NCBI GenBank assembly: GCA_024653205.1
Contig: JANLFO010000011.1
Location: forward strand, 4,940 to 68,939
DNA: 64,000 nucleotides
Source of the DNA: Clostridia bacterium
GTDB taxonomy: Bacteria; Bacillota; DSM-521; Neomoorellales; SLTJ01
Direction of reading: 5' to 3'
Shown here in pieces: positions 6,640 to 30,556 of the stretch. Position 1 is the first letter of the stretch; the number at the start of each line of letters is the position of its first letter. The translations under genes were made by a program, and so were the position numbers. The notes under the pieces were generated by a model. The model saw nothing but the letters and a program-made list of their open reading frames with translations, made no database searches and was not told where the DNA came from.

Positions 6640-7350
6640 ATGGCCGGGATATGGCACATCTTCTGCCGCGAGCTGAAGAGTTACCTGTACTCTCCCCTGG
6701 CCTACGTGATTCTGGCCGTGTACCTGGCCATCGGAGGCTATATATTCAGCGTGGTGCTTCTGGCCACCCGCTCGGCCGAGCTGCGGGGGTATTTCAGCAA
6801 CATAGGCCTGATCCTCTTGTTTCTGGTGCCGGTGCTGACCATGCGCCTCTGGGCGGAAGAGGAGCAGCGGGGAACGGCGGAGTTCCTGCTCACCGCCCCG
6901 GTAGGCTTGGGCCAGGTGCTGGTGGGCAAGTACCTGGCCTCGGCGGCGGTATTCCTCATCGGAGTGGGCCTCAGCCTGGTCTATCCCCTGATCCTGGGCG
7001 GCCTGGGTCAGCCGGACTGGGGAACGATTGCCTGCGGATACCTGGGCCTGGTTCTCTTCGGCCTGGCCTACCTGGCGGTGGGGCTCTTCGGTTCGGCCAT
7101 GAGTTCCAGCCAGGTGGTAGCCGGGGTCCTGAGCTTCGGCCTGCTGCTGGCCTTCTGGGTGGTGGGCTGGCTGTCCGAGGCTTTCGGCGGCAAGCTGGGG
7201 GAGGTAGCCAAGGCGCTGACCGTGGTGGGTCACTACGAAGACTTCCTGAAAGGCGTGATCGATACCACGCACCTCATCTACTTTGCCAGCTTCATCGGGA
7301 TCTTCATCTTCCTGGCGGTTGAAGGCTTGAAATCCCGCCACGGGGCCTAG
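6640..7350 (+). CDS. ABC-2 type transporter permease (GldF-like)
   Basis: 236 aa with multiple hydrophobic helices. Starts 3 nt after the ATPase stop. N-terminus IFCRELKSYLYSPLAYV is typical of ABC-2 permeases. Confidence 0.8.
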   Translation: MAGIWHIFCRELKSYLYSPLAYVILAVYLAIGGYIFSVVLLATRSAELRGYFSNIGLILLFLVPVLTMRLWAEEEQRGTAEFLLTAPVGLGQVLVGKYLASAAVFLIGVGLSLVYPLILGGLGQPDWGTIACGYLGLVLFGLAYLAVGLFGSAMSSSQVVAGVLSFGLLLAFWVVGWLSEAFGGKLGEVAKALTVVGHYEDFLKGVIDTTHLIYFASFIGIFIFLAVEGLKSRHGA

Positions 7351-7353
7351 GGG

Positions 7354-8760
7354 GTGAACGCCGTGTGGCAGAAGACCAGCCAGCGGTGGATACTGGCGGC
7401 CGCCATAGTGGGGCTGGTAGTGCTGGGCAACGTGCTGGGGGCCCGGCACCACTGGCGGCTGGACCTGACCGCGAACAAGCAGTACTCGCTTTCCGTGCAG
7501 AGCAAAGAGGTCCTGGCCCGGCTGGAGCAGCCGGTCCGGCTTTTTGCCTTCCTGGAAAAAGGGAGCGAGGAGGCGGAAAAGCTGGAGGACCTCTTGCACG
7601 AGTACGACTACGCCTCGCCCAAGGTAAGCCTCCAGGTCGTAGACCCGGTGGCCGAGCCGGCGCTCACCCAGCATTACGGCGTGCAGTATTACAACACGGT
7701 AGTGGTAGAGGTGGGCAACCAGAGCCGCAAGGTGGAGCCCTTCAACATCTTCGGCATGGGCGCCGGCATGTACGAAACGGAGTTTAAGGGCGAACAGGCG
7801 GTGACCCGCGCCATTGTGGACCTGGTGCACCAGACGGCGGCAGTGGTCTATTTCCTCGAAGGGCACGGCGAGGGCAGCCTGGATCAGGACTTCAGCGATT
7901 TCCGGGACTTCCTGGAAGGCGACGGCTACAAGGTCAAGACCCTGAACCTGGCTACGGCCGGGACGGTGCCCCAGGATGCCTCGGTGGTGGTGCTGGGCGG
8001 TCCGCGCCAGGATCTGACCGCTCCGGAGGCCGAGGCGCTCAAGAAATACATCTCCGGCGGAGGACGGCTGCTGGCGCTAATCGACCCCCTGCCCCGGGCT
8101 CTGCCCCAGCTGGAGGGTTTGCTGGGCGGCCTGGGGGTTGGGTTGCACGCCGATGTGGTGGTGGATCCACAGCGGGCTTTCTTCCTCGACGCGTTAAGCC
8201 CGGTGCCGGTTCTGGAATATCACCCTATCACGGAGAAGATGCTGGAGCAAAAGGTAAACCTGGTGCTGCCCCGGGCCAGGAGCCTGGCGGCGGCGGTTCC
8301 GGAGGGTGAGAAGGAGCTCCGGGTTAAGCCCTTACTGCGTTCCAGCGATTCCGCCTGGGGCGAAACGGATTTGACCGCCGAGAAGGCCGGCCGTGACGAG
8401 CGCGATCTGGCCGGTCCCCTCAACTACGCCCTGGCGGTGACCCGGGCGGCGGACGAGCCGGCCTCGGGCGAGGGTGCCGAGACTCAAGAACGGCCGGTGG
8501 CCTTGGTGGTAGGCAACTCCGGCTTGGCCCGCAACCAGGCGTTGGGCTTCCAGGGCAACGCCGACTTCCTGGTCAACAGCGTGAACTGGCTGCTGGGCGA
8601 GGAGCAGATGCTGACCATCCGTCCCAAGGCGGAAGAGATCCGCATGGTGCAGATGGATGCTGCTCAGGCGGCGGCGGTATTCTACGGAACTACCTTCGCC
8701 ATGCCGGCGGCACTTCTGGCCGTGGGACTGGCGGTGTGGCTGAGGAGGCGGGGCCGTTGA
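7354..8760 (+). CDS. GldG-like ABC-transporter auxiliary protein (N- and C-terminal TM anchors, large exported domain)
   Basis: 468 aa. N-terminal TM (ILAAAIVGLVVLGNVL) and C-terminal TM (AMPAALLAVGLAVWL). Its position after the ABC-2 ATPase and permease matches the GldA/F/G arrangement. Confidence 0.65.
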   Translation: MNAVWQKTSQRWILAAAIVGLVVLGNVLGARHHWRLDLTANKQYSLSVQSKEVLARLEQPVRLFAFLEKGSEEAEKLEDLLHEYDYASPKVSLQVVDPVAEPALTQHYGVQYYNTVVVEVGNQSRKVEPFNIFGMGAGMYETEFKGEQAVTRAIVDLVHQTAAVVYFLEGHGEGSLDQDFSDFRDFLEGDGYKVKTLNLATAGTVPQDASVVVLGGPRQDLTAPEAEALKKYISGGGRLLALIDPLPRALPQLEGLLGGLGVGLHADVVVDPQRAFFLDALSPVPVLEYHPITEKMLEQKVNLVLPRARSLAAAVPEGEKELRVKPLLRSSDSAWGETDLTAEKAGRDERDLAGPLNYALAVTRAADEPASGEGAETQERPVALVVGNSGLARNQALGFQGNADFLVNSVNWLLGEEQMLTIRPKAEEIRMVQMDAAQAAAVFYGTTFAMPAALLAVGLAVWLRRRGR

Positions 8761-11513: not shown

Positions 11514-12620
11514 CTAAGGTCTGGCTACGGGCGAACGGCCGGGCAGGTAGAGGCGGGGGCCGGAGATCTGCATTTCTGCCGCTTCCGCCGGCCCGGCGGC
11601 CAGGCTTCGCTCTACCAGCTGGCGGAAGAAGGGAATGAAGGCCGGTTTCTCGCCCCGGGTAAGCGCACGGGCCAGGGCTACCGCCCGGCGCGCAGAAGCC
11701 GGACGGCCGGTTTCCCAGAAGAGGAACGCCATTTCCTCCAGCCGCCGGGCGTACACCTTCCGGAATTCGGGGGAGAACATTTCTTCCAGTAACTCGGTCT
11801 TGACCTTGTCGGCCAGCTCCCGGGCCGTAAGGGGGCTGATCACCAGCCTGCTCTCGCGCTGCCGGCGCAGCCTTTCCGCAGCCTGCTCAACCGCCGGGCC
11901 CTCCAGGGCCCAGGAGTGCATCTCTTTTTCTTCCAGAAGCTGATCCGACCCGGCCAACAGGATTTGCAGTTCGGCCTCAACGTCGTCGGCCGGCAGGTAG
12001 CGGTAGACCAGAGGTTCGGGAAGAGTTTCCTCCGGCTCCAGATTGGCGCGGTAGAGCTCGAAATCGCGCGGTACGGGCCGGTTGTGCTTCCGGTTCAGAC
12101 GGTAGTAGTGATGCAGCCATGCGCGGCAGTAGCCGGGGGCCACACTTGCGAAGGTGAAGCCCTCCATCCGGCGCACGCCCTGCCGCAGGGTTTCGTAGTC
12201 CCGCTTGTTCGCCGGCTGATAGACCTCGGCGAAGGTGAGGCCGGCGGTATCCCTGCCCACGGCCAGCAACACCAGGTAAGGATCCGTGGGCCGGCTGAAG
12301 GCGTAGAAGAGGAAGCGGTCGCCGCGCCGATCGATGTGACTGACCAGGGCCTCGAGTGCCCGGGGTACGGACTTGAGGGTCCAGGTCTGGCCGGGGGCGG
12401 GCCCGGATGCCGCCAGACCCTGACTGCGCCAGCGGTGCAGAAGGCGCCGGGCGGCCTTGGCCAGGGTCTTGGGAGCAGTCTCTGCCGCGGCCTGGAGCGC
12501 CCGAACCGCTTCGGGGTCGGGCCGTAGCCGGGATAGGAGGTCCACCAGGGTTGACAATTCGGGTTGCCCTTGGGAAGAGAGCAGACCCTGCTTTTTCATT
12601 TCGGCGATGAGTTCCTGCAC
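11514..12620 (-). CDS. hypothetical protein (no family recognised)
   Basis: 368-aa ORF with coding-like composition. Convergent with mobA and divergent from the riboswitch-led che operon. No motif recognised. Confidence 0.5.
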   Translation of the reverse strand: MQELIAEMKKQGLLSSQGQPELSTLVDLLSRLRPDPEAVRALQAAAETAPKTLAKAARRLLHRWRSQGLAASGPAPGQTWTLKSVPRALEALVSHIDRRGDRFLFYAFSRPTDPYLVLLAVGRDTAGLTFAEVYQPANKRDYETLRQGVRRMEGFTFASVAPGYCRAWLHHYYRLNRKHNRPVPRDFELYRANLEPEETLPEPLVYRYLPADDVEAELQILLAGSDQLLEEKEMHSWALEGPAVEQAAERLRRQRESRLVISPLTARELADKVKTELLEEMFSPEFRKVYARRLEEMAFLFWETGRPASARRAVALARALTRGEKPAFIPFFRQLVERSLAAGPAEAAEMQISGPRLYLPGRSPVARP

Positions 12621-12749
12621 GGCATACCCCTCCCTGCTCGTCGTTGTGCGCGCCGGCGCCAGTATACCACAGTCTGCCCTTGCGGTGAAGGATGTGCCGT
12701 CGGCGGCAGGATTAAGGCGAGATTTGGCGAAGTAAACTGCAAATTCGAT

Positions 12750-12842
12750 TTCGTCCGGGGCAAACCGGTCGAAAGGCCGGGACGCAAAGCTACGGGTCTA
12801 AGGCCTGCGGGGCTACGATCGCCGGGCTGCCGAAATCGGGGT
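12750..12842 (+). promoter_or_regulatory. c-di-GMP-I (GEMM-I) riboswitch aptamer, copy 1
   Basis: GGGGCAAACC-GGUC-GAAA-GGCC-GGGACGCAAAGCUACGGGUCUAAGG...GCCGGGCUGCCGA matches the conserved GEMM-I core known from Vc2 (GGGCAAACC..GAAA..GGACGCAAAGCC...GGGGUUACCGA). The GNRA-capped P1b helix covaries with copy 2. Lies 33 nt upstream of the fapA-like start. Confidence 0.8.
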
Positions 12843-12874
12843 GACGGCGGCCGGTCGTGCGGGGAGGAGAAAAC

Positions 12875-14785
12875 ATGGCGGAGGAAGTGGTAGTGGAGGG
12901 AGCGAGCCTCGAGGAAGCGCGTTCACGGGCGGCCGCCGCCTTGGGGTGCTCGGTTGAAGAGCTGAAGGTGGAGGTCCTCAGCGAGGGCAAAGGGGGATTG
13001 TGGTCGCGAGCGCGGGTGCGCATCCGGGCGCGCCGGGCGGAAGAGGGGCAGTTGGACGGGCGGGTGTGGATAGAGGAGGGAACCGTAGCAGTCGCCGATC
13101 CCGAGCCGGGGGGACGGCCGGCGGTGCTGGGAGCGGGGCCGCACGTCCGGTTATGGATTAACGAGGTGCCGGTAGGGGAGCCGAGGCCGGTAACCAGCCT
13201 GGACCAGGTCCGGGTAGAGGCGGAGGTAGTGGAAGGAGAGGTTTCCGTAGACGTGGAGGTGGCGCCGGACGGCATGAGCTGCGTGCTCAGGGTCCGGCGG
13301 AAGCCCCGGGAAGTCTATGCCGTGGAGGATGCCGAGCCCTCGAACCGCCTTACGATCCGGGCCCGCGTGGTGGAGAGCACCCTTCCGCCCCTCAGCGTCG
13401 AAGAGGTGCTGGCACGCCTTGCCGCGGCCAAGGTGGTCTACGGCGTGGACCGGGAAGCGGTGCAGCAGGCGGTCGAACGGGGAGACGGGGAGCCGGTAGT
13501 GGTGGCCCGGGGTACGCCGCCCACGCCCCCGGTAGACGCCCAGATAGAGTACCTGTTCCTGGCCAGGCAGGAAGAGTTCGAGCGCCAGGCTCCGGGACGG
13601 CGGCGGGTTTTTGCCGTTGAGCCCGGGGAGGTCCTGGCGGTGAAGAAGCCGCCGGTCGCCGGCACGCCCGGCAAGGACGTGCACGGTCGGGCAGTCGAGC
13701 CTCCACCGCCCCGGGACGCTCCGCTGCGGGCCGGAAACGGTACCCGGCTGAGAGAGGACGGCCTGGCGGTGGTGGCCACCACGGTGGGAAGGCCGGAGCG
13801 GCGGGGGAGCCTCATAACCGTAGTGCCGGTGTACGTAGTGGAAGGCGACGCCGACCCTCGGGAAGGGCCGATCAAGTTCAAGGGCGACATCGTGGTCCAG
13901 GGCGACGCGCTGGACGGTACGGTGATCGAGGCCGGAGGAAACCTGCGGGTGAAAGGTCTGGTGGCCAATGCCACTCTCACCGCCGGCGGCAGCATCCTGG
14001 TGGAGGGAAACGTGGTCGGATCCAAGCTCAAGGCCGGGGGAATGGCGCTGGTATGGGAGAAGTGGTGGTCCTACTGGCAGGAGATCGATGAGAACGTACG
14101 GGATTTCCTGTTGGCACTCGAGCAGCTCCGGGAACAGTGGGAGAAGACCAGGCCGGAGGAGGAACGGCGTATCGCCAACGGAGCCCTTATCAAGGTGCTC
14201 CTGGACACCAGGTATCGGCAGCTACCCCAGCAGTTGGAGAAGGCCAGGGCGGCGACGGAAGAACTCTTTGAGGCCACGGGGCTGGAGGCCGAGCACCCCT
14301 TTCGGGAAGCGCTCGGCTATCTCTGCCACTACCTGGCCGAACAGGGGCACATGGCCCTGGCCAGCGCCCGGGAACTGGCAGAACGTTTTGAGCTTGCCCG
14401 GCAAGAAGCTCAGGCGCTGCAACAGTCGGCGCTGGAGGCCGGTAAGAACGCCAACATTACCGCCTTCTACGTGCAGAACTCGGTTCTGGAAACCACCGGC
14501 CAGGTGGTAGTTAACGGTAAGGGCTGCTACAATTGTTCGGTCTACGCGGGCAACGGGGTGGTGATCGGCGGGGTCCCGGGCGCCTTCCGTGGGGGTCAGA
14601 TAATCAGCAAGGGCCACGTGCGGGTCCAGCAGTTGGGCAGCCCCGCGGAGGTCAGGACCTTCGTGCAGGTGCCCAAGCACTTTACGATTCGTGCGGTTGA
14701 GGCCTTTCCGGGGGTACTGCTCAAGGCGGGCAGCCGGGTGGAGAAAATCACTGCCCACATGGCGGTAAACCTGTTGGGAGAATAG
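12875..14785 (+). CDS. FapA/DUF342-family protein (flagellar assembly protein A-like) with a Jag/KhpB-N-like N-terminus
   Basis: 636 aa from ATG 12875 (SD GGGGAGGAG). The N-terminus EVVVEGASLEEARSRAAAALGCSVEELKVEVL resembles Jag_N. The central beta-solenoid-like glycine-rich repeats (GDIVVQGDALDGTVIEAGGNLRVKGLVANATLTAGGSILVEGNVVGSKLKAGG) are typical of DUF342. Confidence 0.7.
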   Translation: MAEEVVVEGASLEEARSRAAAALGCSVEELKVEVLSEGKGGLWSRARVRIRARRAEEGQLDGRVWIEEGTVAVADPEPGGRPAVLGAGPHVRLWINEVPVGEPRPVTSLDQVRVEAEVVEGEVSVDVEVAPDGMSCVLRVRRKPREVYAVEDAEPSNRLTIRARVVESTLPPLSVEEVLARLAAAKVVYGVDREAVQQAVERGDGEPVVVARGTPPTPPVDAQIEYLFLARQEEFERQAPGRRRVFAVEPGEVLAVKKPPVAGTPGKDVHGRAVEPPPPRDAPLRAGNGTRLREDGLAVVATTVGRPERRGSLITVVPVYVVEGDADPREGPIKFKGDIVVQGDALDGTVIEAGGNLRVKGLVANATLTAGGSILVEGNVVGSKLKAGGMALVWEKWWSYWQEIDENVRDFLLALEQLREQWEKTRPEEERRIANGALIKVLLDTRYRQLPQQLEKARAATEELFEATGLEAEHPFREALGYLCHYLAEQGHMALASARELAERFELARQEAQALQQSALEAGKNANITAFYVQNSVLETTGQVVVNGKGCYNCSVYAGNGVVIGGVPGAFRGGQIISKGHVRVQQLGSPAEVRTFVQVPKHFTIRAVEAFPGVLLKAGSRVEKITAHMAVNLLGE

Positions 14786-14838: not shown

Positions 14839-15324
14839 ATGGAGGCAGGCCAGGGGATCAAGGGGGTCGAACGCCAGCTTGTGGCCTTTGAGCTGGCCGG
14901 GGAGACCTACGGCGTGGACATCAACTGGGTGCACGAGATCATACGCATGCAGGCGGTTACCAGGCTGCCGCGCACCCCGGTGTTCATCGAGGGGGTAATC
15001 AATCTTCGGGGCCGGATCATCCCCGTGATTGACCTGCGCAAACGGTTCGGGCTACCGCCCAAGGAGCAGACCCCGGATACGAGGATTATGGTCGTGGAGA
15101 TGGCCGGGGTCACGGTGGGCATGATCGTGGACGCGGTTTCCGAAGTGGTGCGGCTGTCGGCGGAAAGCATCGAGCCGCCGCCGCCGATGATGCACGGCAT
15201 CGATACCGCCTACCTGGAGGGCGTGGGAAAGTGGGAGGAACGCCTGGTAATACTGCTTAACCTGGACAGAGTGCTGCGTCAGGCCGAACAGGAGCAGTTG
15301 GCCGAAGCCGCGCAGGCGCTCTAG
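14839..15324 (+). CDS. cheW: chemotaxis coupling protein CheW
   Basis: 161 aa. QLVAFELAGETYGVDINWVHEI...INLRGRIIPVIDLRKRFG is the CheW-domain signature. Confidence 0.9.
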   Translation: MEAGQGIKGVERQLVAFELAGETYGVDINWVHEIIRMQAVTRLPRTPVFIEGVINLRGRIIPVIDLRKRFGLPPKEQTPDTRIMVVEMAGVTVGMIVDAVSEVVRLSAESIEPPPPMMHGIDTAYLEGVGKWEERLVILLNLDRVLRQAEQEQLAEAAQAL

Positions 15325-15362
15325 CCCGGACTTTGGGGGTGGAGTCCTTGGCCGGAACGGAT

Positions 15363-17414
15363 ATGGGCCAGTACCTAAGCCTGTTTCTGGAGGAAACCGA
15401 GGAGCAGCTTCAGCTCATGGACCAGAACCTGGTGCTTCTCGAGGAGCACCCGGAGGATCTGGAGCTTCTGAACCGGATTTTCCGGGCCGCCCACACCATT
15501 AAAGGGGCAGCCGCTTCCATGGGCTTCGAGCGGCTGGCCGGGCTCACCCACGCCATGGAGGAGGTACTGGACAAGCTTCGGCAGGGCCGGCTGGCGGTTA
15601 CCAGCCGGGTAGTCGACGTGCTGCTGGCCTGCCTCGACGTCCTGCGAGAGCTGAAAGAAGAGGTGAGCGGCGGCCGGGAGCAGACGGTGGAGGTGGAGGA
15701 CCTGGTAGGGCGGCTTCGCGCCCTGACCGGCGGTGCGGGCGGTGACATTCGGCCGGTGGCCAAGTCGGCGGCCGGTACGCGGGCGGACCTCGACCTCAAC
15801 GACGTGGAGCGGCATCTGGTAGAAGCGGCCTACCTTAAGGGTTTCCGCGTCTGGCATCTGGTGGTGACGCTGGAGGAGGGCTGTCTCATGAAGGCGGCCC
15901 GGGCCTACATTGTCTACAAGAACCTGGAAGAGATCGGAGAGATCATTAAGACCGTGCCCCCGGCCGAGGACATCGAGGCCGAGAGGTTCGACCGCACCCT
16001 TTCCTTCGTGCTGGTTACCCGGGAGGATGCCGACGTGGCGGCCAGTGTGGTCAAGTCCACCTCCGAGATAGCCTCGGTTGCGGTCGAGGCGGTCAACCTG
16101 GAAGCGGGCGAAGAGAAGCCGGCGGCCGTAGAGGCTCCGACCGTGGCCCAGGCTTCCCCGTCCGGGAAGGAGGAACTTGCGGCCAGACGGGCGGAGGACG
16201 CCCGCAGCGGCCAAACCGTCCGGGTAGATGTGCAGCGGCTGGACAACCTAATGAACCTGGTGGGCGAACTGGTAATCGACCGTACCCGTTTGGCCGAAGT
16301 TGAGGCCTCGCTGCAGGGGCGCCTGGGAAGCAGCGGCCTTCTGGAAACCCTGGAGGAGATCTCGGTGCATATCGGCCGAATAACCGGAGAACTGCAGGAA
16401 GAAATCATGAAGGCGCGCATGTTCCCGGTGGAGCAGGTATTCAGCCGCTTCCCGCGCATGGTGCGGGATTTGGCCCAGAAGGCGGGCAAGGAGGTCAACT
16501 TCGTGGTGGAAGGCCGGGAAACCGAACTGGACCGGACGGTAATCGAAGAGATAGGAGACCCGCTGATCCACCTTCTGCGCAACGCCATCGACCACGGCAT
16601 CGAGCCGCCGGAGGAGAGGGAAAGGCTGGGCAAACCCAGGCGGGGCACCATAGAGCTCAAGGCTTACCACCAGGAGAACCAGATCGTGATCACCGTGAGC
16701 GACGACGGCCGGGGCATGGACGCGGGCGCCATTCGGGAGCGGGCGATCGGCCGCGGCCTGGTCACCGCCGAGCAGGCGGCGCGGATGAGCGAACGCGATG
16801 TCCTCAACCTTATCTTCCTCCCCGGCTTCTCCACCGCCGAGACGGTTACTGACGTTTCCGGACGGGGCGTGGGCATGGACATCGTGCGCAATCACCTGGA
16901 GCGCATAAACGGCACCATAGATATTTCCACCCGGCCGGGCAGGGGCACCACCTTCACCATCAAGCTGCCGCTTACCCTGGCCATTAACCGCTCCCTCCTG
17001 GTCAGGGTGGAGGGTCTGGTGCTGGCCTTCCCCCTGGCCAACGTGGTAGAAATCCTGGAGGTCTCGGGGAGCGAGGTCCAGTACGTGCACCGGCAGCCGG
17101 TGGTGGTGGTAAGGGGAGAGGTACTGCCCCTTTTCTCGCTGGGCGAGGTGCTGGGCGTGAAGAACGGCGCGGAGATGGAGCGTCAGCAAATGGCGGTAGT
17201 GGTGGCGGCCATTTCCGAGAAGCGGCTGGGGTTCGTGGTAGACGAACTCATCGGGGAGCAGGAAATCGTGATTAAGCCTCTGGGCGGGTACGTGGGCAGT
17301 ATCCCCGGCCTGGCCGGGGCTACCATCATGGGGGACGGCAGCGTGGCCCTCATCCTGGACGTGCGGGGATTGCTGGCCCAGACCGGCGGCCGCCTTGGGC
17401 CGGTGGCAGCATGA
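15363..17414 (+). CDS. cheA: chemotaxis histidine kinase CheA
   Basis: HPt motif HTIKGAAASMG, N-box HLLRNAIDHGIE, G1 DDGRGMD, G2 GRGVGMD and a C-terminal CheW-like domain. Start taken at ATG 15363; the track start 15333 is also possible. Confidence 0.95.
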   Translation: MGQYLSLFLEETEEQLQLMDQNLVLLEEHPEDLELLNRIFRAAHTIKGAAASMGFERLAGLTHAMEEVLDKLRQGRLAVTSRVVDVLLACLDVLRELKEEVSGGREQTVEVEDLVGRLRALTGGAGGDIRPVAKSAAGTRADLDLNDVERHLVEAAYLKGFRVWHLVVTLEEGCLMKAARAYIVYKNLEEIGEIIKTVPPAEDIEAERFDRTLSFVLVTREDADVAASVVKSTSEIASVAVEAVNLEAGEEKPAAVEAPTVAQASPSGKEELAARRAEDARSGQTVRVDVQRLDNLMNLVGELVIDRTRLAEVEASLQGRLGSSGLLETLEEISVHIGRITGELQEEIMKARMFPVEQVFSRFPRMVRDLAQKAGKEVNFVVEGRETELDRTVIEEIGDPLIHLLRNAIDHGIEPPEERERLGKPRRGTIELKAYHQENQIVITVSDDGRGMDAGAIRERAIGRGLVTAEQAARMSERDVLNLIFLPGFSTAETVTDVSGRGVGMDIVRNHLERINGTIDISTRPGRGTTFTIKLPLTLAINRSLLVRVEGLVLAFPLANVVEILEVSGSEVQYVHRQPVVVVRGEVLPLFSLGEVLGVKNGAEMERQQMAVVVAAISEKRLGFVVDELIGEQEIVIKPLGGYVGSIPGLAGATIMGDGSVALILDVRGLLAQTGGRLGPVAA

Positions 17415-17992
17415 TCCGGGCGGTCGCCATCGCCGCCTCTACCGGCGGCCCGACCGCCCTGCAGAAGATAGTTCCCCGGCTGCCGGCTGGATTTCCGGCA
17501 GCCGTTTTCGTAGTCCAGCACATGCCCCCGGGGTTCACGCACGGGCTGGCGGTCCGCCTGGGTGAACTGGGGGAACTGCCGGTGCGGGAAGCGGTGGACG
17601 GCGAGCCGGTACTGCCCGGGCAGGTGCTGGTTGCCCCCGCCGGGCGCCAGACCTGGGTGGTACGAAGCGAGGGAGACGTAAAGGTGCGGGTTGGAGAGGC
17701 CGGCCCCGTGCCCGGCGCCTTTCGTCCCTCGGCCGACGTACTCTTCTACAGCCTGGCGGAAGCCTACGGGCAGGAAGTACTGGCCGTGGTGCTTACCGGA
17801 ATGGGCAAGGACGGCCTCAAGGGCCTGGCCCGGGTTAAGGAGAAAGGCGGCCTGATACTGGCCCAGGATGAGGCCTCGTCGGTGGTTTTCGGTATGCCCC
17901 GGGTAGCAATTGAGGCCGGTCTGGCCGACCTGGTGATGGGGTTGGAAGAAATGGCCGCCGCAATTGTCTCCCTGGTGCTAAAGAAGACTTAG
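17411..17992 (+). CDS. cheB: chemotaxis methylesterase CheB, catalytic domain only (no receiver domain)
   Basis: 193 aa. Catalytic-triad contexts ASTGGP (Ser), VQHMP (His) and TGMGKDG (Asp). The start overlaps the cheA stop (ATGA). No REC domain is encoded upstream in frame. Confidence 0.85.
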   Translation: MIRAVAIAASTGGPTALQKIVPRLPAGFPAAVFVVQHMPPGFTHGLAVRLGELGELPVREAVDGEPVLPGQVLVAPAGRQTWVVRSEGDVKVRVGEAGPVPGAFRPSADVLFYSLAEAYGQEVLAVVLTGMGKDGLKGLARVKEKGGLILAQDEASSVVFGMPRVAIEAGLADLVMGLEEMAAAIVSLVLKKT

Positions 17993-22419: not shown

Positions 22420-22505
22420 TGCGGACGGCAGGAGAGTTGGGAAGCCCTCACGTGTAGTGCGGGATCAGACGGGTTAGTTGGGGCAGCGAAGGGGTGCCGG
22501 AGGAA

Positions 22506-25500
22506 ATGCGAATACGCGGGGGGGCCCGGTCAAAAGCTCTGCTGTTGCTCTTCTTTATGCTGGCCAACCTGCTTCTTATCCCCGCCTCGCCGGTGCGGGC
22601 ACAAGACCATACGCCAGAAGTGACCGACATCGAGCCTGAGCAAGGCGGTATGGGTGGCGGCTACATAATGACCATCACCGGCTCCAACTTTGCCACCGAA
22701 GCTCAAGGGCAGGTGGAAGTCACCATTGGTGGCGTGGTCGCCCGGGTAGTGGAGCGTTCCGAGAACGAACTTAAGGTGGAAGTCCCGCCCCGCGATCCCT
22801 TGCCCACGGCGCCGGTGCCGGTGTTGGTAACCAATATAATCTACGGCCAACGCTACCCCGCCGCCCAACAGCCGGAGTTTGCCTATCTGGCCGGGCCGGT
22901 CATCGATTATGTGGCGCCCAACTACGGAAGCCTTGCCGGCGGTGCGTCCACCGGTACTGTTACCGTAATTGCCGGTAAGAACTTTCCGCTTCAAGAGTCT
23001 CAAGATTTGCTGGTCCTCTTCGGTGATGGGAGCGAGGCGAAGGAGGCCCAAATCGTAGACGTGGACTCGGATAACGGTCACTGGATCAAGGTTTACCATC
23101 CGGCAACGGAGTACGACACCGGCAATCCCGTGCCCGTAACCGTGCGGGTCTACCAGGGGAATGACTACGTGGAGGCGCGACTGCCCGACGCGTTCCGATA
23201 CAGTACCGCTCAGAGCGCTCCCAAAGTAACCGCGGTTTCGCCCAACGTGATAGCCAGCACTGGGGGCGATCTGACCGTCTACGGCCAGGACTTCCGTAGC
23301 TCTCTGGGGGCGGACGATGTACCCGTTTTTGCCGCTGTGTACCTCGAAAAGGATGGTGCCAGTTACACCTGCGAGGTAAGGCGCCTCACCTGTACCGCCA
23401 TGTTGGTCCGCGCGCCCTCCGGGCTTTCGTCGGGCCTTTACCGGGTGAGGGTGCGCAACCCCGATGGCCGGGAGACCACCATGGCCGCGGCTCTGACCGT
23501 GGTTCCTTCCGAGCAGGCCCTGCGCATCCTCAGCATCACCCCCAACGTGGGCAGCGTGGAGGGCGGGCTTAGGGTCACCCTGAAGGTGGTTAACCTGCCG
23601 TCAACCGAGAGCGATTTCCCCCGTGTGGTAGCGGTGAAGTTCGGCGACACCCCGGGGATTGAGCCAATAGAGGAGGACGCCAACACCATCGCCGTGACCA
23701 CTCCCACCCAGATGCCCGAGGGGGTCTACAACGTTACCCTGGAGGTAACCTACAAGCAATCCGGCCAAATCAAGCAGCAGGTGGCCGTGTTGCCTCAGGG
23801 TTTTCGATTCGCCATTCCTGCCAGTCGGCCTCGGATCGAAAAGGTTGACCCGTACTTCGGGTCGCCCGGCGGCGGAACGCTGGTGACCATATACGGCTCC
23901 GATTTCCGCTCCCCCGCCGAAGGGGAGGAGATCGTCGTCAGGTTCGGCGGAAAAGAAGCCGACAAGTCCCAGGTCCAGGTGGTCAGCCCGACGGAGATCA
24001 AGGTGGTGACACCTAAGGCCGGCACGGCTGGCGCGGTGGACGTGGAAGTGATCAACCCGGACGGCGCCCGTGCGGTGCTTCCCGGGGGTTTCGTCTACGT
24101 TTCTAGCCCGCCGTGGCTGCAGAGCGTGTTGCCCGAATCGGGAACCGTGGGAGAGACGGTGTACCTTTATGCCACCAACCTGGCCTACCGTCCGGAGGAC
24201 ATCGGCCTCGTCCGGCCGAAAATCGCGAACGGCTTGCCCGAGAATGAGTCTAACCTTACTTTTTACCCTATGGAAGGAGTCAATCTTACCGACCTGGGCG
24301 CCGGAGCCTGGCGGGTAGAGGCCCAGGTGCCAAAGCTTGTCAGGCCGGGCCCCGCGGTGGTGCGCATAGAAACCCCTTATGGAGTTTCCAACCCCTTGGA
24401 GTTTACCGTCCTTTCGGGCTTTCCCCCGCCAAAAGTCCAGGAGGTTTCGCCCTCTCGAGTGTCCACGAGGGGTGGGGCGAAAGTAACGGTCAGGGGGGAA
24501 AACTTCCGTAAGGGGGCGGTCGTCAAGTTAGAGAGCGGTGATCTGAGCAATGTCCTCAGTAACGTCGAGGTAACGAGCCCTACGGTGATAAACTTCACGA
24601 CGCCCAATCTCATTCCTGGCAAGTACCTTGTCCGGGTGATCAATCCCGACGGAAAAGAGGGCATCTGGAAAGACAGGTACTTTACCGTCTACAGCGAGCC
24701 CAGCATCACCCGGGTCAGCCCGGCAACGGGCAGCGTGTACGGGGGCAATATCATCACCGTGACCGGCGAGGACTTCTACCCCGGCGCCCAGGTGGTGCTG
24801 CGGATAAAGGTCAGCGATACCGTAACGAAAGAAGTGTACGCGGAAGGTAACGACGTTGAGGTGAAGGGCCGCAACGAGCTTCTCTTCCGCCTCCCTCCGG
24901 CGGGGATAGAGTTAGACTTGGACAAACGGGTCTTGGCGGACGTGGTAGTGGAGAACCTCGACGGCGGCAGGGGCGAATTGCCTAACGGCTTCACCTACTG
25001 CTGTCCGCGGACAAGCCCCGAAATCAAGTCCGTTGTGCCGCCCCGTGGCCCTACGGAGGGGGGGATACCGATACTGGTTCTCGGTTCCGACTTTCGTAAG
25101 GGTGCGCGGGTGTTTATCGGCTGGAAGGAAGTCGATACTCAAGAGGTGCAGGTAGAGGATTCTACTCTCATCAAGGTGGGAGAAATACCGGGGCAGCCGA
25201 AGGACCTGTACCCCGTAACGGTCGTGAACCCTGATGGTGGGGCCGCCGTGTTTGAATCTGGCTTCCAGTATTTGGAGCCCGAGACGGAGCCGGTTATTGA
25301 CACCATTTACCCCGACAAGGGGCCAAACGACCGGTCCATCCCGGTGATCATCCGGGGCAAGAACTTTCTGCCGTATTCGGATGTTTTCTTCGGTCCGTAC
25401 CCCGCCGCCGAAGTAGAGTGGCGGGACAGCACCGTGCTCAAGGTCTACACCCCCGTAGTTCCCGAATATCTCGGCACGGTGGACGTGTACGTGCTAGATC

Positions 25501-28085
25501 CCAACGGCGGCACGGCGCTGAAGAAGGGCGGCTTCACGTTCATGAGGCCCGCCTACTTGCCGGAGATAACGAACATCACCCCCGATAAGGGTTCTACCGA
25601 GGGCGGTACCCTGGTGGTGATCACCGGCAAGAACTTCTTCACGGGAGTAAAGGTATACTTCGACGGGCTGCCCGCGCGTTCGGTAGAACTCCTAGACAAA
25701 GTAGTGATCGAGGGCGAGGAGTTCGACCGGGTGGTGGCCGAAACTCCGCCCCACCCGCCCGGTCGGGTGGACGTGACCCTGGTAAACTGGGACGGCGGCG
25801 TGGCTACGAAGCCCGACGCCTTTACCTACGTCCTAGCTGGCACGCCACCTGAGATCCTCAAGGTGGACCCCCCGGAAGGCCCGGCCATGGAGGAGACTAG
25901 GGTTACTATCTATGGCCGCAACTTCCAGCCGGGGACCCCTGAGAACCCGCTCACGGTATATTTTGGTTACACCCCGGCAAGAGTAGAAAACGTTGATTAC
26001 GACACCATTGTGTGTGTCGCTCCGGCTCTGCCCGCCGGAAAGGTGAAGGTGCGGGTGGTGAACCCCGACTTCGGCGAGGCGGTCTGGGACGGATACTTCG
26101 TCTACCAGGCTTCGGTTCCCAGGATTACGGCGGTGAATCCCGATCAGGGACCAAAGCAAGGGGACTACCGCGTAACCATCCTGGGCGAGGATTTCCGGCC
26201 GGGACTGGTGGTCTACTTTGGTCAGGAAGGACTCAGGGTGGAGGAGATTACAATCACAGAGGACCTATGCAGCGTAAGGGTGTACGTCTATCGAGATGAA
26301 CACCGTACCGCCGGACGGGTAGACGTACGGGTTGTGAACCCCGACGGCGCCGAGGCGGTGCTGAAGAACGGGTTCACGTACACCAGCCCGGCTTCTAATC
26401 CCACCATTGCCGGGGTCACGCCGGACAAGGGTCCAACCACCGGCGGCATCTGGGTGACCATCAGCGGAACCGACCTGCGGGAGGAGGCGCGGGTGTACTT
26501 CGGCGGCAGGGAAGCAAGCCGGGTGCGCTTCATCGACAACCAGACCCTGCTCGTCCTCATCCCCGCCCACCCGGAAGGGACGGTGGCGGTGACGGTGGTG
26601 AACTACGACGGCGGCACCGATACCTGGGACAAGCCTTTTACTTACGTTACCCCCGTATCCAGCCCCCATATCGACCGGGTGGTACCCAATAAGGGGCCGC
26701 ACGTGGGCGGGACCAGCATCACCATCTACGGCCTGGACTTTCGCAGCGGGGCGGCGGTGTACATCGACGGCGTCCCCGCGAAAGAGGTCGTGTGGGTCAG
26801 CTACAAGGAGATCACCTGCGTGACCCCCGGCGGGAAGCCGGGAAAGGTCGATGTCACCGTGGTCAACCCAGACCAGGACGCCTACGGCGCCTACACCGCC
26901 CCGAACGCCTTCACCTACGTGGAGGTCGAGGTGCCCACCATCACCGGGGTGGAGCCGGACCGGGGCCCGAAAAAGGGCGGCACGGCCATTACCATCACCG
27001 GCACCGGCTTTGCCTCCGGGGCCAGGGTCTGCATCGGCGGCAAGGAGGCCTTGGAAGTCAGGGTAGCCGGCGGGACCCAGATCACTGCTGTCACCCCTCC
27101 GGGAGAACCGGGGCGGCAGGACGTGAGGGTGGAGAACCCCGATGGCGGTTACGCCGTGTTGGAGGACGGCTTCCTGTACCTGGGGCCGCCGGAGGAGCCG
27201 GGATGGCTTTCCGCCAGTCCGGTTGACGAGCGCACCGTGGAGCTGGAATGGGAGGAAGTGGAGTTTGCCACCGCCTACGAGATCTTCGTGGCCAGGGAGG
27301 ATGGCGGGCCGTACGCCTTCCTGGACCGCACCACCGCCACCACCTACTACGCCACCGGGCTGGTTCCCGACCAGGAGTACTTCTTCCGGGTGCGGGCGGT
27401 GAACGACCAAGGCATTTCGGTGCTGTCGGAGGAAACCTGGTCCTGGACCGATGAGGCGGAGGAAGACGAAGAGGATGAGGCCTCGGTGCCGGAGGAGCGC
27501 CTGGAAGGGAACATCCTTTATGTTACCCTGACCAACGGCTACGCCTGGAGAAACCTGGGCAGCACGCTGGACCTGACGCAGACCGCCCACGCGGGCGCAG
27601 GCGGGCTGTTGCTTCGCGTTCCGGTGGACGTGGCCCTCGCCTACGGCCGCAGCCTCAGGGTGGTGGGCCTGCGCTATTCGGTGGAGATCCCGTCGGCCGT
27701 GTTCGCGCCGGCACAAGCGCGCCGCCTGAGCTCGGCGGAGCGGGCAGAGTCGGCGCTGGTGCTGCAGCTGGAGGAGGTGCCGGCGGCCGAGGCGGCCGAT
27801 CTGGCCCGGCAGGCGCCGGGCCGGGTGATCTCGCGGATGCTGCGCCTGACTCTGAGGCTGGAGGGCGCAGGGAACAGAAGCGTGCTTTCTGATCTGGGGA
27901 GCTACGCGCCGGTTACGGTTGCCGTCGATCCCAACCTCGCCCGGGGCCGCACGGTGGGCCTGTACCGGTACCGCCCGGAAAGGGGCTGGGAGCGGCTGGG
28001 CGGGCAGCCCTCGCCCGGCTGGCCCCAGGTAATCGGCGCGGGCAACCTGACCGGCATCTTCGCCGCCGTGGCCGAGACCAGGTAG
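22506..28085 (+). CDS. giant secreted surface protein: signal peptide + 16 IPT/TIG repeats + FN3 domain + acidic linker + unknown C-terminal domain
   Basis: 1859 aa from ATG 22506 (or GTG 22494). Signal peptide ALLLLFFMLANLLLIPASPVRA|QD. I counted 16 repeats of 85-95 aa with the pattern P-x-I-x-x-V-x-P-x-x-G-x-x-x-GG-x-x-V-T-I-x-G-x-x-F...V-x-V-x-N-P-D-G. FN3-like segment at 27192-27450 (TVELEWEEVEFATAYEIF...YFFRVRAVN). Acidic linker DEAEEDEEDEA. The last 195 aa or so have no recognised family. No SLH, LPXTG or TM anchor. Confidence 0.85.
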   Translation: MRIRGGARSKALLLLFFMLANLLLIPASPVRAQDHTPEVTDIEPEQGGMGGGYIMTITGSNFATEAQGQVEVTIGGVVARVVERSENELKVEVPPRDPLPTAPVPVLVTNIIYGQRYPAAQQPEFAYLAGPVIDYVAPNYGSLAGGASTGTVTVIAGKNFPLQESQDLLVLFGDGSEAKEAQIVDVDSDNGHWIKVYHPATEYDTGNPVPVTVRVYQGNDYVEARLPDAFRYSTAQSAPKVTAVSPNVIASTGGDLTVYGQDFRSSLGADDVPVFAAVYLEKDGASYTCEVRRLTCTAMLVRAPSGLSSGLYRVRVRNPDGRETTMAAALTVVPSEQALRILSITPNVGSVEGGLRVTLKVVNLPSTESDFPRVVAVKFGDTPGIEPIEEDANTIAVTTPTQMPEGVYNVTLEVTYKQSGQIKQQVAVLPQGFRFAIPASRPRIEKVDPYFGSPGGGTLVTIYGSDFRSPAEGEEIVVRFGGKEADKSQVQVVSPTEIKVVTPKAGTAGAVDVEVINPDGARAVLPGGFVYVSSPPWLQSVLPESGTVGETVYLYATNLAYRPEDIGLVRPKIANGLPENESNLTFYPMEGVNLTDLGAGAWRVEAQVPKLVRPGPAVVRIETPYGVSNPLEFTVLSGFPPPKVQEVSPSRVSTRGGAKVTVRGENFRKGAVVKLESGDLSNVLSNVEVTSPTVINFTTPNLIPGKYLVRVINPDGKEGIWKDRYFTVYSEPSITRVSPATGSVYGGNIITVTGEDFYPGAQVVLRIKVSDTVTKEVYAEGNDVEVKGRNELLFRLPPAGIELDLDKRVLADVVVENLDGGRGELPNGFTYCCPRTSPEIKSVVPPRGPTEGGIPILVLGSDFRKGARVFIGWKEVDTQEVQVEDSTLIKVGEIPGQPKDLYPVTVVNPDGGAAVFESGFQYLEPETEPVIDTIYPDKGPNDRSIPVIIRGKNFLPYSDVFFGPYPAAEVEWRDSTVLKVYTPVVPEYLGTVDVYVLDPNGGTALKKGGFTFMRPAYLPEITNITPDKGSTEGGTLVVITGKNFFTGVKVYFDGLPARSVELLDKVVIEGEEFDRVVAETPPHPPGRVDVTLVNWDGGVATKPDAFTYVLAGTPPEILKVDPPEGPAMEETRVTIYGRNFQPGTPENPLTVYFGYTPARVENVDYDTIVCVAPALPAGKVKVRVVNPDFGEAVWDGYFVYQASVPRITAVNPDQGPKQGDYRVTILGEDFRPGLVVYFGQEGLRVEEITITEDLCSVRVYVYRDEHRTAGRVDVRVVNPDGAEAVLKNGFTYTSPASNPTIAGVTPDKGPTTGGIWVTISGTDLREEARVYFGGREASRVRFIDNQTLLVLIPAHPEGTVAVTVVNYDGGTDTWDKPFTYVTPVSSPHIDRVVPNKGPHVGGTSITIYGLDFRSGAAVYIDGVPAKEVVWVSYKEITCVTPGGKPGKVDVTVVNPDQDAYGAYTAPNAFTYVEVEVPTITGVEPDRGPKKGGTAITITGTGFASGARVCIGGKEALEVRVAGGTQITAVTPPGEPGRQDVRVENPDGGYAVLEDGFLYLGPPEEPGWLSASPVDERTVELEWEEVEFATAYEIFVAREDGGPYAFLDRTTATTYYATGLVPDQEYFFRVRAVNDQGISVLSEETWSWTDEAEEDEEDEASVPEERLEGNILYVTLTNGYAWRNLGSTLDLTQTAHAGAGGLLLRVPVDVALAYGRSLRVVGLRYSVEIPSAVFAPAQARRLSSAERAESALVLQLEEVPAAEAADLARQAPGRVISRMLRLTLRLEGAGNRSVLSDLGSYAPVTVAVDPNLARGRTVGLYRYRPERGWERLGGQPSPGWPQVIGAGNLTGIFAAVAETR

Positions 28086-28098
28086 GGGAGGGAACGGA

Positions 28099-30531
28099 GT
28101 GGCGCAGGTAAGGCGTTGCCTTGGAGCGGTCCAAGGGCGGTGTCTGATAGCGGGATTCCTCCTGCTCCTCGCCTCTTACTTCTTCCTCCCGGTGCAGGCC
28201 GTGGCCCAGACCCGGACCTATTCGGGCTGGATCGGAGCGGCGCGGGTGGCGTCCCGGCTGAACTACTCCGATCTTTCCGGCCACTGGGCCAGGGAAGCGA
28301 TACTGCGGGTGGCTTCGCTGGGAGTCCTCACCGGCGAGGGCGGCCGGTTCCGGCCCCAGGCGGCGCTCAGCCGGGAGGAGGCCCTGACCGCGTTACTTTC
28401 CCTGTCGGGCAGCGGGACGCGCGGCACCGGCCTGCTGGACAGGGCAGAAGGAGCGGGAATAGTGACCCGGGAGGAGAGGGCCGGGCTGGAGGGCAATCTG
28501 GCGGCTGCGGTGCAGAGGCAGGAGTTCGGCGCCTGGCTGGCCCGGGCCGCGGGACTTGCGGAAGCTGCGGGCCCGGGCAATCTGCGCCTGGCAGGTTTTT
28601 CCGATGCCGCCAGGGTCCGGCCGGAGTACCGGGGCGGGCTCGAGTTCCTGCTGGAAAGAGGCTGGCTTGCCGGCAGGGGCAGAACGCTGGCACCCCAGGC
28701 CTCCATTACCCGGGCGGAGGCGGCCAGCCTGCTTTATCGTGCCCTGCCGGAGGTTTTGCCCGCGCGCGGCTGGGAAGTGCTGCAGGGAGTGGTCGCGGCC
28801 GTGGATGAAGTGCGGACCGCCCAGGGCCTGCGCCTGACGGTTCAGGTGGCTGCGGCCGGAGGGGACAGCGTGGAACTGGTGGCCGGGCCGGGGGCCGGAA
28901 CCGCCGCCGGCCCGGACTGGCCGGTGGTAGCCGGGGGCAGGGTTGGCACCGCCTCCGCCCTGTCTGCCGGTCAGGTGGTGCGGGTGTGGATTACTCCTCC
29001 CACGGTGCGGATGGCAGAGGTTCTGTCCGGGCAGTCGCAGCGAAGCAGCGGCACGCTGGCCGCGGTGGATGCCGGCCGGGGGGAAATCACGGTGCTGATT
29101 AACGGCCGGTCGACCGTTCTCTCCCTGCACCCGGGGGCCAGGATCAGCGTGGGCGGCAGTGCCGCCCGGCTGTCCGATCTCCTGCCGGGTCAGGAGGTGG
29201 AGCTCTCGCTCCGGGGCGGCATGGTGGAGGAATTGGCGGCGGAGCTGCCGGTTCCGGAACTGGCCGCCTACGCCGAGACGCCCGGCCGGGTGGTGACCGG
29301 GTACCTGGCCGGGTGGGATGGGAGCCGGCTGCGGGTGGTGCTGGCCGGGGGGCAGGAACAGAGCTACTACCTTTCCCCGGCGGCGGCCGTAGTCTCGGGC
29401 AGCCGGGCCGTGGCGCCTTCCGAACTGCGGGTGGGAGACCTGCTTCGGATTACCATTTCGGACACGCCGGCGAGTACCGCCACCCGGGTGGAGGTGGCGG
29501 CCGGAGCGGCCCGGGAGGAACTGTGGTACGGGCGGCTGGCCGGGGTGCTGGTTCAGGACCGGGTGGTGCTGGTTTCCCAGCCGCGGCGGCTGTACTTCGG
29601 CCGCTGGCTGTCCCAGGGCGGGCAGCGGGCCTTTGCGCTCTCGCCGGAGGCACGGGTCTATCGGGGGGCAACGGCGGCCGAACTGGAGGACCTGAGGAAC
29701 TTGATGGGCAGCCAGGTATTCCTGAGCGTGGGGCAGCCGTTCGGACGGGAAGAGGCAGCCTGGCTGGCCCTCCGGGAAGGAGAGCCCTGGATCTACCAGG
29801 ACCGCCTGGCGGACTGGGACGCGGGGCGCCGGGTGCTCACCCTGAGCGGGGGAACGCGTTTGACCCTGCCGGAGGAGGCGCGGGTACTGGCGGCCGGCCG
29901 GGCCGTGGATCCGGCCGGCCTGGAGACCGATCGGCCCCTGGTGGCCGTGGCCGCGGATGCCGGCGCGGTTTTCGTGGAGCAGACCGAGTACTACCCCTCC
30001 TCCTGGTCCTTCTACCGGGGCGAGGTTGAGGAAGTGGAAGAGCGGTGCCTGGTGCTGGACAGCTGGAGCCGCTTTGACGGTGATTACTGGTCCGATACCC
30101 GATATCGCGATAAGGAACTGACGCTAACCGGCGATACGGTAGCGGTGGACGCCACGGGCGCGCCGCCGCGAGTGCTCGATCTGTATTCCTTCCTGCAGGC
30201 GCGCCACACCGGCGCCTTCGACGGCAGGCAGGTTTATGTGGTGGCCGACGGTTCGGACCGGGTGCGGGCGGTGGTGCTGCGCGACGAGGAGCGCGGCCCG
30301 GAGGTGGCCTCCCTGGCCACGGTAGGCGGTTCGGGCGAGTTTGCCGACGTACTGTCCTGGAGCCCGGAGTACCGGGCCTGGCGGGAACTGGGGGCCTCGC
30401 TGGCGCTGGATACCTCGAAGGCCCTAGTGTTCCGAAACGGATACTGGGTGGGCCCGGCGGCCCTGGCCGAGGGCGACCCGGTGTACTTGCTTCACGACTA
30501 CGAGGAAGCGCTGATCGTCTTTCTTCAGTAA
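28099..30531 (+). CDS. secreted SLH-domain protein (N-terminal SLH region + array of small beta-module repeats)
   Basis: 810 aa. Signal peptide LLLLASYFFLPVQAVA|QT. SLH motifs YSDLSGHWAREAILRVASLGVLTGEGGRFRPQAALSREEALTALL and FSDAARVRPEYRGGLEFLLERGWLAGRGRTLAPQASITRAEAASLLYRAL. They are followed by at least 5 degenerate 65-85-aa repeats. Starts 13 nt after the IPT gene stop (SD GGGGAGGGAA). Confidence 0.8.
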   Translation: MAQVRRCLGAVQGRCLIAGFLLLLASYFFLPVQAVAQTRTYSGWIGAARVASRLNYSDLSGHWAREAILRVASLGVLTGEGGRFRPQAALSREEALTALLSLSGSGTRGTGLLDRAEGAGIVTREERAGLEGNLAAAVQRQEFGAWLARAAGLAEAAGPGNLRLAGFSDAARVRPEYRGGLEFLLERGWLAGRGRTLAPQASITRAEAASLLYRALPEVLPARGWEVLQGVVAAVDEVRTAQGLRLTVQVAAAGGDSVELVAGPGAGTAAGPDWPVVAGGRVGTASALSAGQVVRVWITPPTVRMAEVLSGQSQRSSGTLAAVDAGRGEITVLINGRSTVLSLHPGARISVGGSAARLSDLLPGQEVELSLRGGMVEELAAELPVPELAAYAETPGRVVTGYLAGWDGSRLRVVLAGGQEQSYYLSPAAAVVSGSRAVAPSELRVGDLLRITISDTPASTATRVEVAAGAAREELWYGRLAGVLVQDRVVLVSQPRRLYFGRWLSQGGQRAFALSPEARVYRGATAAELEDLRNLMGSQVFLSVGQPFGREEAAWLALREGEPWIYQDRLADWDAGRRVLTLSGGTRLTLPEEARVLAAGRAVDPAGLETDRPLVAVAADAGAVFVEQTEYYPSSWSFYRGEVEEVEERCLVLDSWSRFDGDYWSDTRYRDKELTLTGDTVAVDATGAPPRVLDLYSFLQARHTGAFDGRQVYVVADGSDRVRAVVLRDEERGPEVASLATVGGSGEFADVLSWSPEYRAWRELGASLALDTSKALVFRNGYWVGPAALAEGDPVYLLHDYEEALIVFLQ

Positions 30532-30556
30532 CCGCAAGGAGGCAGGTGGAGGCTGT

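Follow-up and report, generated by a model that had tools for sequence, protein, structure and literature searches.

A class I c-di-GMP riboswitch aptamer without an intrinsic terminator upstream of a fapA–cheW–cheA–cheB operon in a Moorellales-like Firmicute

Class I c-di-GMP riboswitches (c-di-GMP-I, GEMM-I; Rfam family RF01051) of Firmicutes usually have an intrinsic terminator. In Clostridia, riboswitches of this class are OFF switches, and the one upstream of flgB in Clostridioides difficile is transcriptional (PMC11477304). In the Bacillus cereus group, the class I element Bc1 lies upstream of mcpE, with the ribosome-binding site and AUG in a stem-loop, and both transcriptional and translational control have been discussed for it (PMC11218506). 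For Vc2 of Vibrio cholerae, it is known that G20 contacts one guanine of c-di-GMP and that C92 forms a Watson–Crick pair with the other (PMC6140456), and the roles of the ligand-contact bases G20, A47 and C92 have been described (PMC6140456, PMC11218506). An A replacing G20 is the criterion for the c-GAMP subclass, GEMM-Ib (PMC6140456).

We here analyse a 64,000-nucleotide stretch of contig JANLFO010000011.1 (the window, whose first letter is position 1), from a metagenome-assembled Clostridia genome; the nearest FapA, 77% identical, is that of a Moorellales MAG. When the complete window was scanned with Rfam, exactly two matches were obtained, both to the c-di-GMP-I clan, at 12750-12835 (copy 1) and 33789-33877 (copy 2). 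Copy 1, the subject of this study, precedes a fapA–che operon; homologous loci in other genomes are designated L002, L004 and so on.

Identity and structure of the aptamer

The following features of copy 1 were mapped, all on the forward strand (+).

12746-12838 (+): complete c-di-GMP-I (GEMM-I) aptamer including the closing helix P1 (cmscan, RF01051 core score, canonical fold mapped)
12746-12753 (+): 5′ strand of P1, CGAUUUCG, pairing with 12831-12838 (sequence, and in L008 both strands of the helix changed)
12759 (+): G, equivalent of Vc2 G20 (aligned to RF01051 model position 11)
12760-12785 (+): hairpin with a GAAA tetraloop, GC/GC plus CCGGUC-GAAA-GGCCGG (Rfam alignments, pair counts)
12786 (+): A, equivalent of Vc2 A47, a G in the GGC-variant model (Rfam consensus lines against GACGCAAAG in the window)
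12788-12828 (+): P3, the second hairpin, with a receptor-like UCUAAG/UACGA internal loop and a distal GCCU-GCG-GGGC stem-loop
12830 (+): C, equivalent of Vc2 C92 (alignment to RF01051)
12831-12838 (+): 3′ strand of P1, CGAAAUCG (read from the sequence, fold mapping)

A first-pass annotation, made from the sequence alone, had proposed at this place a second, diverged GEMM-I riboswitch sharing a conserved core with copy 2. The core elements named there are all present: GGCAAACC at 12759-66, GACGCAAAGC at 12781-90, ACGGGUCUAAGGCC at 12792-12805 and GCCGGGCUGCCG at 12821-32, with the CCGGUC-GAAA-GGCCGG part of the tetraloop hairpin at 12765-80. Two hairpins, a junction closed by P1, a GNRA tetraloop and a receptor-like internal loop, that is, the architecture of the class, were all found. 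P1, in which CGAUUUCG pairs with CGAAAUCG over 8 bp, closes the aptamer and covaries within the fapA group, reading GGUUUCG/CGAAACC in L008. The covariance-model search with RF01051 that the annotation had recommended gave 68.4 bits for the core with P1 trimmed (12759-12832), about twice the Rfam gathering score of 35 bits, and in the model alignment the positions matching G20, A47 and C92 carry the canonical bases (G12759, A12786 and C12830). Since these three bases are canonical, c-di-GMP is the expected ligand, and the aptamer would be expected to bind it. That 12746-12838 constitutes a canonical class I c-di-GMP aptamer we regard as close to certain. The presence of a second riboswitch is thereby borne out by scores above gathering and by canonical contact bases, but the word 'diverged' was an overstatement, the aptamer being canonical and high-scoring with its three ligand-contact positions intact. 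Its location had been given correctly, and its extent (12750-12842) needs correction to 12746-12838, the true span being slightly larger with the 8-bp P1 counted in.

The fold is also supported by pair counting over the canonical pairs, P1 excluded, in 12 distinct aptamers, namely the two of the window, those of the fapA orthologues and further ones from Bacillota loci recovered by a pattern scan. In this set 88.8% of cells are paired and seven pairs have changed on both sides; the observed pairing score was reached by none of 500 shuffles, and sliding the partners by 1-3 columns lowers pairing to 25-56%. Four of the six stem pairs of the tetraloop hairpin have changes on both sides, and the invariance of P3 is uninformative, as the pattern used to collect the sample fixed the P3 sequence. 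The compensatory changes that had been reported between the two window copies are real: the tetraloop hairpin is CCGGUC/GGCCGG in copy 1 and CCACUC/GGGUGG in copy 2, with two pairs changed on both sides (G-C and G-C in the former, A-U and C-G in the latter).

Over the full-length element (12750-12835), however, the top model of the clan is not RF01051 but RF03167, the c-di-GMP-I-GGC variant, with 69.6 bits (E=2e-14) and hence above its gathering score of 59 bits, and RF03167 is likewise the best model for the full elements of L002, L006 and L008. Taken at face value, this would make copy 1 a GGC variant of altered ligand specificity rather than a c-di-GMP sensor. We take 'GGC' to mean G20/G47/C92, on the basis of the Rfam consensus lines. 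The core consensus sequences of the two models differ at one base (GACGCAAAg in RF01051, GACGCGAAg in RF03167), and the variant is alike in overall architecture, with an explicit outer P1 included, but has G at the A47 position and is without the distal receptor stem. In the window the distinguishing base is A (12786, in GACGCAAAG), as it is in all orthologues (GCAAAG, against GCGAAG in the RF03167 consensus), and the distal P3 stem with its receptor is kept. Once the outer P1 is removed, RF01051 becomes the best match at the 68.4 bits given above, so that the RF03167 score is attributable to the outer P1 pairs of that model; RF01051 also gives 71-72 bits in L004 and L005, whose contigs begin inside the aptamer, and L013 and L016, unrelated aptamers with the canonical A, are taken by RF03167 as well. 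Membership in the GGC variant was rejected because the defining base is A, not G, and because RF01051 is best after trimming of P1, and we consider it scarcely credible; the RF03167 label is model cross-talk from the explicit outer P1 pairs. The c-GAMP subclass was rejected too, position 12759 being G. For annotation there is a pitfall here, in that Rfam clan competition tags canonical c-di-GMP-I aptamers with a good outer P1 as 'GGC' variants. It is a likely source of mis-annotation, the cases seen being window 12750-12835, L002, L006, L008, L013 and L016.

The operon and the leaders of its orthologues

Downstream of the aptamer, the leader and the operon contain the following features.

12845-12852 (+): CGGCGGCC, the sole conserved block of the linker and a candidate switching sequence (conservation between the window and L002)
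12854-12879 (+): weak hairpin of GUCGUG (12854-59) with CAUGGC (12874-79), predicted by folding with the aptamer closed; its loop holds the Shine-Dalgarno (SD) sequence and its stem includes the start codon
12861-12869 (+): strong SD sequence GGGGAGGAG, 5 nt before the ATG (read from the sequence)
12875-14785 (+): fapA (DUF342), first gene of the operon, starting at ATG 12875, with Jag_N, FapA_N and FapA domains (Pfam)
14839-15324 (+): cheW (Pfam CheW)
15333-17414 (+): cheA (Pfam Hpt, P2, H-kinase_dim, HATPase_c and CheW; the public gene call starts at 15363)
17411-17992 (+): cheB (Pfam CheB_methylest)

Pfam domains confirm that the aptamer precedes fapA–cheW–cheA–cheB, and the SD sequence and ATG lie where the first-pass annotation had placed them, 22 nt separating the end of the aptamer from the SD. 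The fapA product has 636 aa and the same start in the public gene call; its N-terminal Jag_N domain (residues 7-51, encoded at 12875-13030) comes before FapA_N and the beta-solenoid and is absent from more distant FapA homologues. CheB (17411-17992) consists, with 193 aa, of the methylesterase domain only and is without a receiver domain. Genes for an FlgN-like protein, FlgK and FlgL follow cheB. Farther downstream, between fliW and the riboswitch-preceded flgB operon, the region 22494-32104 encodes a protein of 1863 aa with at least 13 IPT/TIG repeats and fn3, then two SLH-domain proteins.

On the other side of the aptamer lies a divergent gene of 368 aa (11514-12620, − strand), for which the public annotation gives a Y4lR_C match and nothing else, and which is syntenic in all orthologous loci. 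A promoter-like site of this gene is found at 12661-12689 (TTCACC-17-TATACT, with TG upstream), and its −10 element is conserved across loci. Between it and the aptamer, the motif GGATTAAGG..(A)ATTTGGCGAAGTAA occurs at 12710-12736 in the window, at about 2330-2356 in L002 and at about 2281-2312 in L008; L006 is without it and has a sigma-A-like TTGCTT-15-TATATT. Inspection of 12710-12736 by eye gave no convincing sigma-70, sigma-28 or sigma-54 spacing, and the motif may be a promoter or an operator.

Copy 2 provides a comparison within the same window.

33789-33877 (+): copy 2 c-di-GMP-I aptamer upstream of flgB-flgC-fliE-fliF-fliG (RF01051, 80.9 bits)
33897-33924 (+): copy 2 terminator, GACCGCCC-GAC-GGGGGGUC, then UUGUUUUUU (read from the sequence)

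The first-pass annotation was right that copy 2 has a U-tract terminator and copy 1 has none. In copy 2 the terminator hairpin spans 33897-33915 and is followed by the U-tract UUGUUUUUU; in the region around copy 1 (12300-13300) a simple terminator scanner found no terminator-like site; the copy 2 terminator was missed by the scanner on account of one G-G mismatch in its stem. Read directly, the 36-nt linker of copy 1 (12839-12874) has only four scattered U residues (12842, 12855, 12858 and one in the AUG context), and a GC-rich hairpin with a U-tract is absent between aptamer and start codon. In copy 2, furthermore, CCGGAGA (33873-79, the 3′ strand of P1) can form a hairpin with UCUCCG (33892-97), and UCUCC is also complementary to the SD sequence GGAGGGG (33925-31) that directly follows the terminator. 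From its sequence, copy 2 may combine termination with SD sequestration.

What could not be seen from the window alone is that the absence of a terminator from the copy 1 leader is lineage-specific and probably a derived state. The protein search returned six close FapA homologues only, and in the contigs fetched for them (from Moorellales-like MAGs) the aptamer, near-identical in sequence, lies just upstream of every recovered close fapA orthologue, within a shared neighbourhood in which the divergent Y4lR_C-like gene is followed by fapA and che genes. The leaders themselves fall into two sets. A terminator hairpin GCCUUUUC...GAAAAGGC with U6 follows the aptamer in L004, L005, L006 and L008, an example being GCCUUUUCGCC-GGUA-GGUGGAAAGGC then UUUUUU directly after P1; counting near-duplicates by locus, the bearers are L004, L005, L006/L007 and L008/L009/L011, whereas the window and L002/L003/L015 are without it. 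From GCUGCC to the start codon there are 52-55 nt in the window and L002, its closest relative, against 91-96 nt in the terminator bearers, a difference of about 40 nt. Because independent assemblies agree, the missing terminator is not an assembly artefact. In a FapA tree built by neighbour joining and rooted on distant homologues, a root that is weakly determined since the outgroups are very distant, the terminator-bearing L006 is basal and the window plus L002 are sister to the other terminator-bearing group. As a terminator-bearing lineage is basal, loss in the window/L002 lineage is the more parsimonious reading of the rooted tree and most likely what happened. Affine-gap alignments place the long gap mostly over the hairpin and U-tract and align CGGCGGCC of the window with the CGCGGCAG/GCGGCG element 3′ of the relatives' terminator; MAFFT puts the leader gap elsewhere, and the exact indel junction thus differs by method.

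Further terminator-less relatives were not found by a protein scan of genome contigs, and pattern scans at the DNA level, run on collections of genomes and metagenomes, gave the genome of L002 and otherwise unrelated GEMM-I loci. The known terminator-less lineages number two, too few for a covariation test of the platform. L022, whose FapA is 32% identical and which lies next to motAB, is without a riboswitch. A different arrangement is seen in L010 (− strand, about 7234-7360) and L017 (932-1060), where a c-di-GMP-I aptamer has an extended P1 (GUGC...GCAC) directly followed by UUUUU, such that the ligand-stabilised P1 itself resembles a terminator stem.

Selection on the aptamer and mode of control

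The window and L002 share 92.7% identity over the aptamer, as compared with 56% over the linker, 65% over the upstream spacer and 52% at the fourfold-degenerate sites of fapA, and the differences within the aptamer are confined to J1/2, the distal loop and a single base of the receptor bulge, all of them family-variable positions. The contrast with the fourfold sites implies that the aptamer has been under purifying selection after the loss of the terminator, and from this maintenance we infer that it probably still regulates something. Another possibility is that the aptamer has been kept but drives no gene control, being a relic or a structured 5′ end, and that fapA–che expression is constitutive with respect to c-di-GMP. 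A precedent exists in Bc1, a class I riboswitch whose downstream genes are unresponsive to c-di-GMP in vivo (PMC11218506), and the leader examined here has no terminator, no statistically supported sequestration of the SD or AUG in either polarity, and no anti-SD C-run in its linker, unlike L004, L005, L006 and L008. However, in a relic the ligand pocket would have decayed, and the degree and distribution of conservation between lineages whose fourfold sites have drifted to 52% identity are not those of a decaying element; we consider a relic unlikely.

If the aptamer is still regulatory, the one clue to its expression platform is the conserved block CGGCGGCC. The conserved stretch, which extends to CGGCGGCC(G) at 12845-53, is embedded in an otherwise poorly conserved linker, and the block (12845-52) is complementary to GGCUGCCG of the aptamer (12825-32) over 8 bp, or 9 bp in L002. 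Since the C92 equivalent lies within GGCUGCCG, along with the bottom of P3 and the first bases of the P1 3′ strand, the alternative helix and the ligand-bound fold would be mutually exclusive. Once the block is transcribed, the alternative helix appears in the unconstrained minimum free energy (MFE) fold of both lineages. In the window the duplex of the block with the aptamer 3′ strand has z = -2.7, 12 of 1000 dinucleotide shuffles being as good, and the same trend is seen in five of six orthologues (p 0.01-0.09, one exception), although the orthologues are related and these values are not independent. In the terminator-bearing orthologues, a segment complementary to the aptamer lies between the U-tract and the SD, and in L004, L005, L006 and L008 this segment contains C-runs that in isolation pair with the SD (positions of the segment: L004, about 95-160; L005, about 95-155; L006, about 2455-2500; L008, about 2450-2500). 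A possible reading is that the ancestral leader relied on both termination and translational control and that the window may retain a remnant of the second tier only.

The best overall explanation, to which we assign a probability of about 0.6, would be that the canonical aptamer, its terminator most likely lost, is still regulatory; our best guess at the mechanism is a c-di-GMP-dependent structure switch acting on translation, probably in the OFF direction. In the absence of c-di-GMP, the block at 12845-52 would pair with 12825-32, thereby excluding P1 and the ligand pocket; with c-di-GMP, the aptamer would close and release CGGCGGCC, the start region would refold through pairing of GUCGUG (12854-59) with CAUGGC (12874-79), and translation initiation of fapA would be altered as a result. 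Most probably, high c-di-GMP would lower expression, in line with the terminator-bearing relatives and with the expectation for motility genes. Three things favour translational OFF control: an alternative helix that has been conserved, the way the leaders of the relatives are built, and the biological link between c-di-GMP and motility. Considered separately, a translational level of control, as modelled, is a tentative assignment, and the OFF polarity, given that the element is regulatory, has a slight edge.

Folding of the start region does not single out this explanation. The first-pass annotation had held that control, if any, is more likely translational or Rho-dependent and had suggested searching alternative folds for SD sequestration, and this search did not bear it out: occlusion of the start site is no better than in shuffled linkers, and in either modelled state of the window the SD has an accessibility of about 0.9. 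When the fold is constrained to contain the aptamer, the weak hairpin at 12854-79 is the sole contact with the start codon, which is less occluded in this closed state than in 96% of the linker shuffles. For translational OFF control, neither competitor strength nor AUG occlusion exceeded chance under linker shuffling, and in full folding any GC-rich linker competes with the GC-rich aptamer about equally. A local model comparing a free with a blocked tail in six orthologues was discarded, since L006 alone gave a clear OFF effect and the sign was not consistent among the others. Sequestration of the SD by the 5′ strand of P1 (UUUCGUCC with GGAGAAA), seen in the first MFE fold, was likewise rejected, the pairing not being conserved in L002. 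The Ala codons CGGCCGCCG of fapA (12930-38) are complementary at all 9 nt to the linker block CGGCGGCCG (12845-53), but long-range pairing of the two as a platform was dismissed because it is found only in the window and L002, where shared Ala codons and common ancestry explain it.

Folding also bears on the opposite polarity, in which the bound P1 at the 5′ end would free the start site or protect the transcript, so that c-di-GMP raises fapA–che expression. In the full-length unliganded MFE fold of the window, bases of P3 pair with 12858-63, 12868-70 and 12876-79 and cover parts of the SD and AUG, and in a whole-molecule model closing the aptamer increases the accessibility of SD plus AUG by 0.30; an action through RNA stability also has a reported precedent in Vc2 (bioRxiv 10.1101/617340). 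However, the increase of 0.30 is matched by about 10% of shuffles and is not significant, so that the ON model did not pass linker shuffling, and L002 shows no accessibility difference between the states. Moreover, the order of aptamer then terminator in the orthologues and the motility context point to OFF. An ON switch or a stabilising element is, on this evidence, improbable.

The Rho-dependent alternative fares worse. It would have ligand-controlled folding expose or hide a rut site, with Rho stopping transcription in the leader or early in fapA, and it had been suggested on the ground that an intrinsic terminator is absent. Yet the RNA from 12820 to about 13300 is G-rich and C-poor, the opposite of a rut site, with a C/G ratio of 0.35-0.67 in every 78-nt window over some 450 nt and the first ratio above 1 near 13330, and the untranslated linker has just 36 nt. 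Rho-dependent attenuation was rejected on composition and appears very unlikely.

At the level of the clade, the favoured translational switch can be placed in a history of expression-platform turnover. The ancestral leader may have had a terminator and a pre-SD segment able to pair with either the aptamer 3′ strand or the SD; the terminator and the anti-SD C-run would have been deleted and the aptamer and complementary block kept, leaving control that is now purely post-transcriptional, through translation initiation or mRNA stability. We put this scenario forward with reserve, at somewhat less than even odds. If true, it would be a natural example of platform turnover in a Gram-positive, with matched 'before' and 'after' sequences.

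Comparison with described systems

A chemotaxis/FapA operon is added here to the c-di-GMP riboswitch regulon, and together with copy 2 upstream of flgB, two separate motility gene blocks of one genome would be under direct c-di-GMP sensing by RNA. Our literature search found no paper linking DUF342/FapA genes to a c-di-GMP-I riboswitch; fapA is nevertheless a new target gene and not a new principle, as class I switches before flagellar and chemotaxis genes are documented. The one unusual point is that a terminator is missing in a particular Firmicute lineage while selection on the aptamer has continued. The same aptamer and gene with and without a terminator form a natural pair that could serve as a probe for riboswitch function after platform replacement, the practical value being modest.

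With the orthologous fapA leaders of related MAGs (L004, L005, L006/L007 and L008/L009/L011), the window element shares the aptamer, the downstream gene and the divergent Y4lR_C-like neighbour, and differs, together with L002, in having neither the terminator hairpin with U6 nor the SD-pairing C-runs. With the RF01051 class and its representative Vc2 it has in common the core, the three-helix junction, the GAAA tetraloop with receptor, the bases G20, A47 and C92 and a position in the 5′ leader of motility genes, the differences being the host, a high-GC Moorellales-like Firmicute, and the lack of an intrinsic terminator. Bc1 is likewise a class I c-di-GMP aptamer before a chemotaxis gene, but has a 220-nt platform with two terminators, against a 36-nt linker with none. 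The flgB riboswitch of C. difficile belongs to the same aptamer class, the same phylum and the same field of motility-gene control; its arrangement is matched by copy 2 with its terminator, whereas copy 1 precedes fapA–cheWAB and has no terminator.
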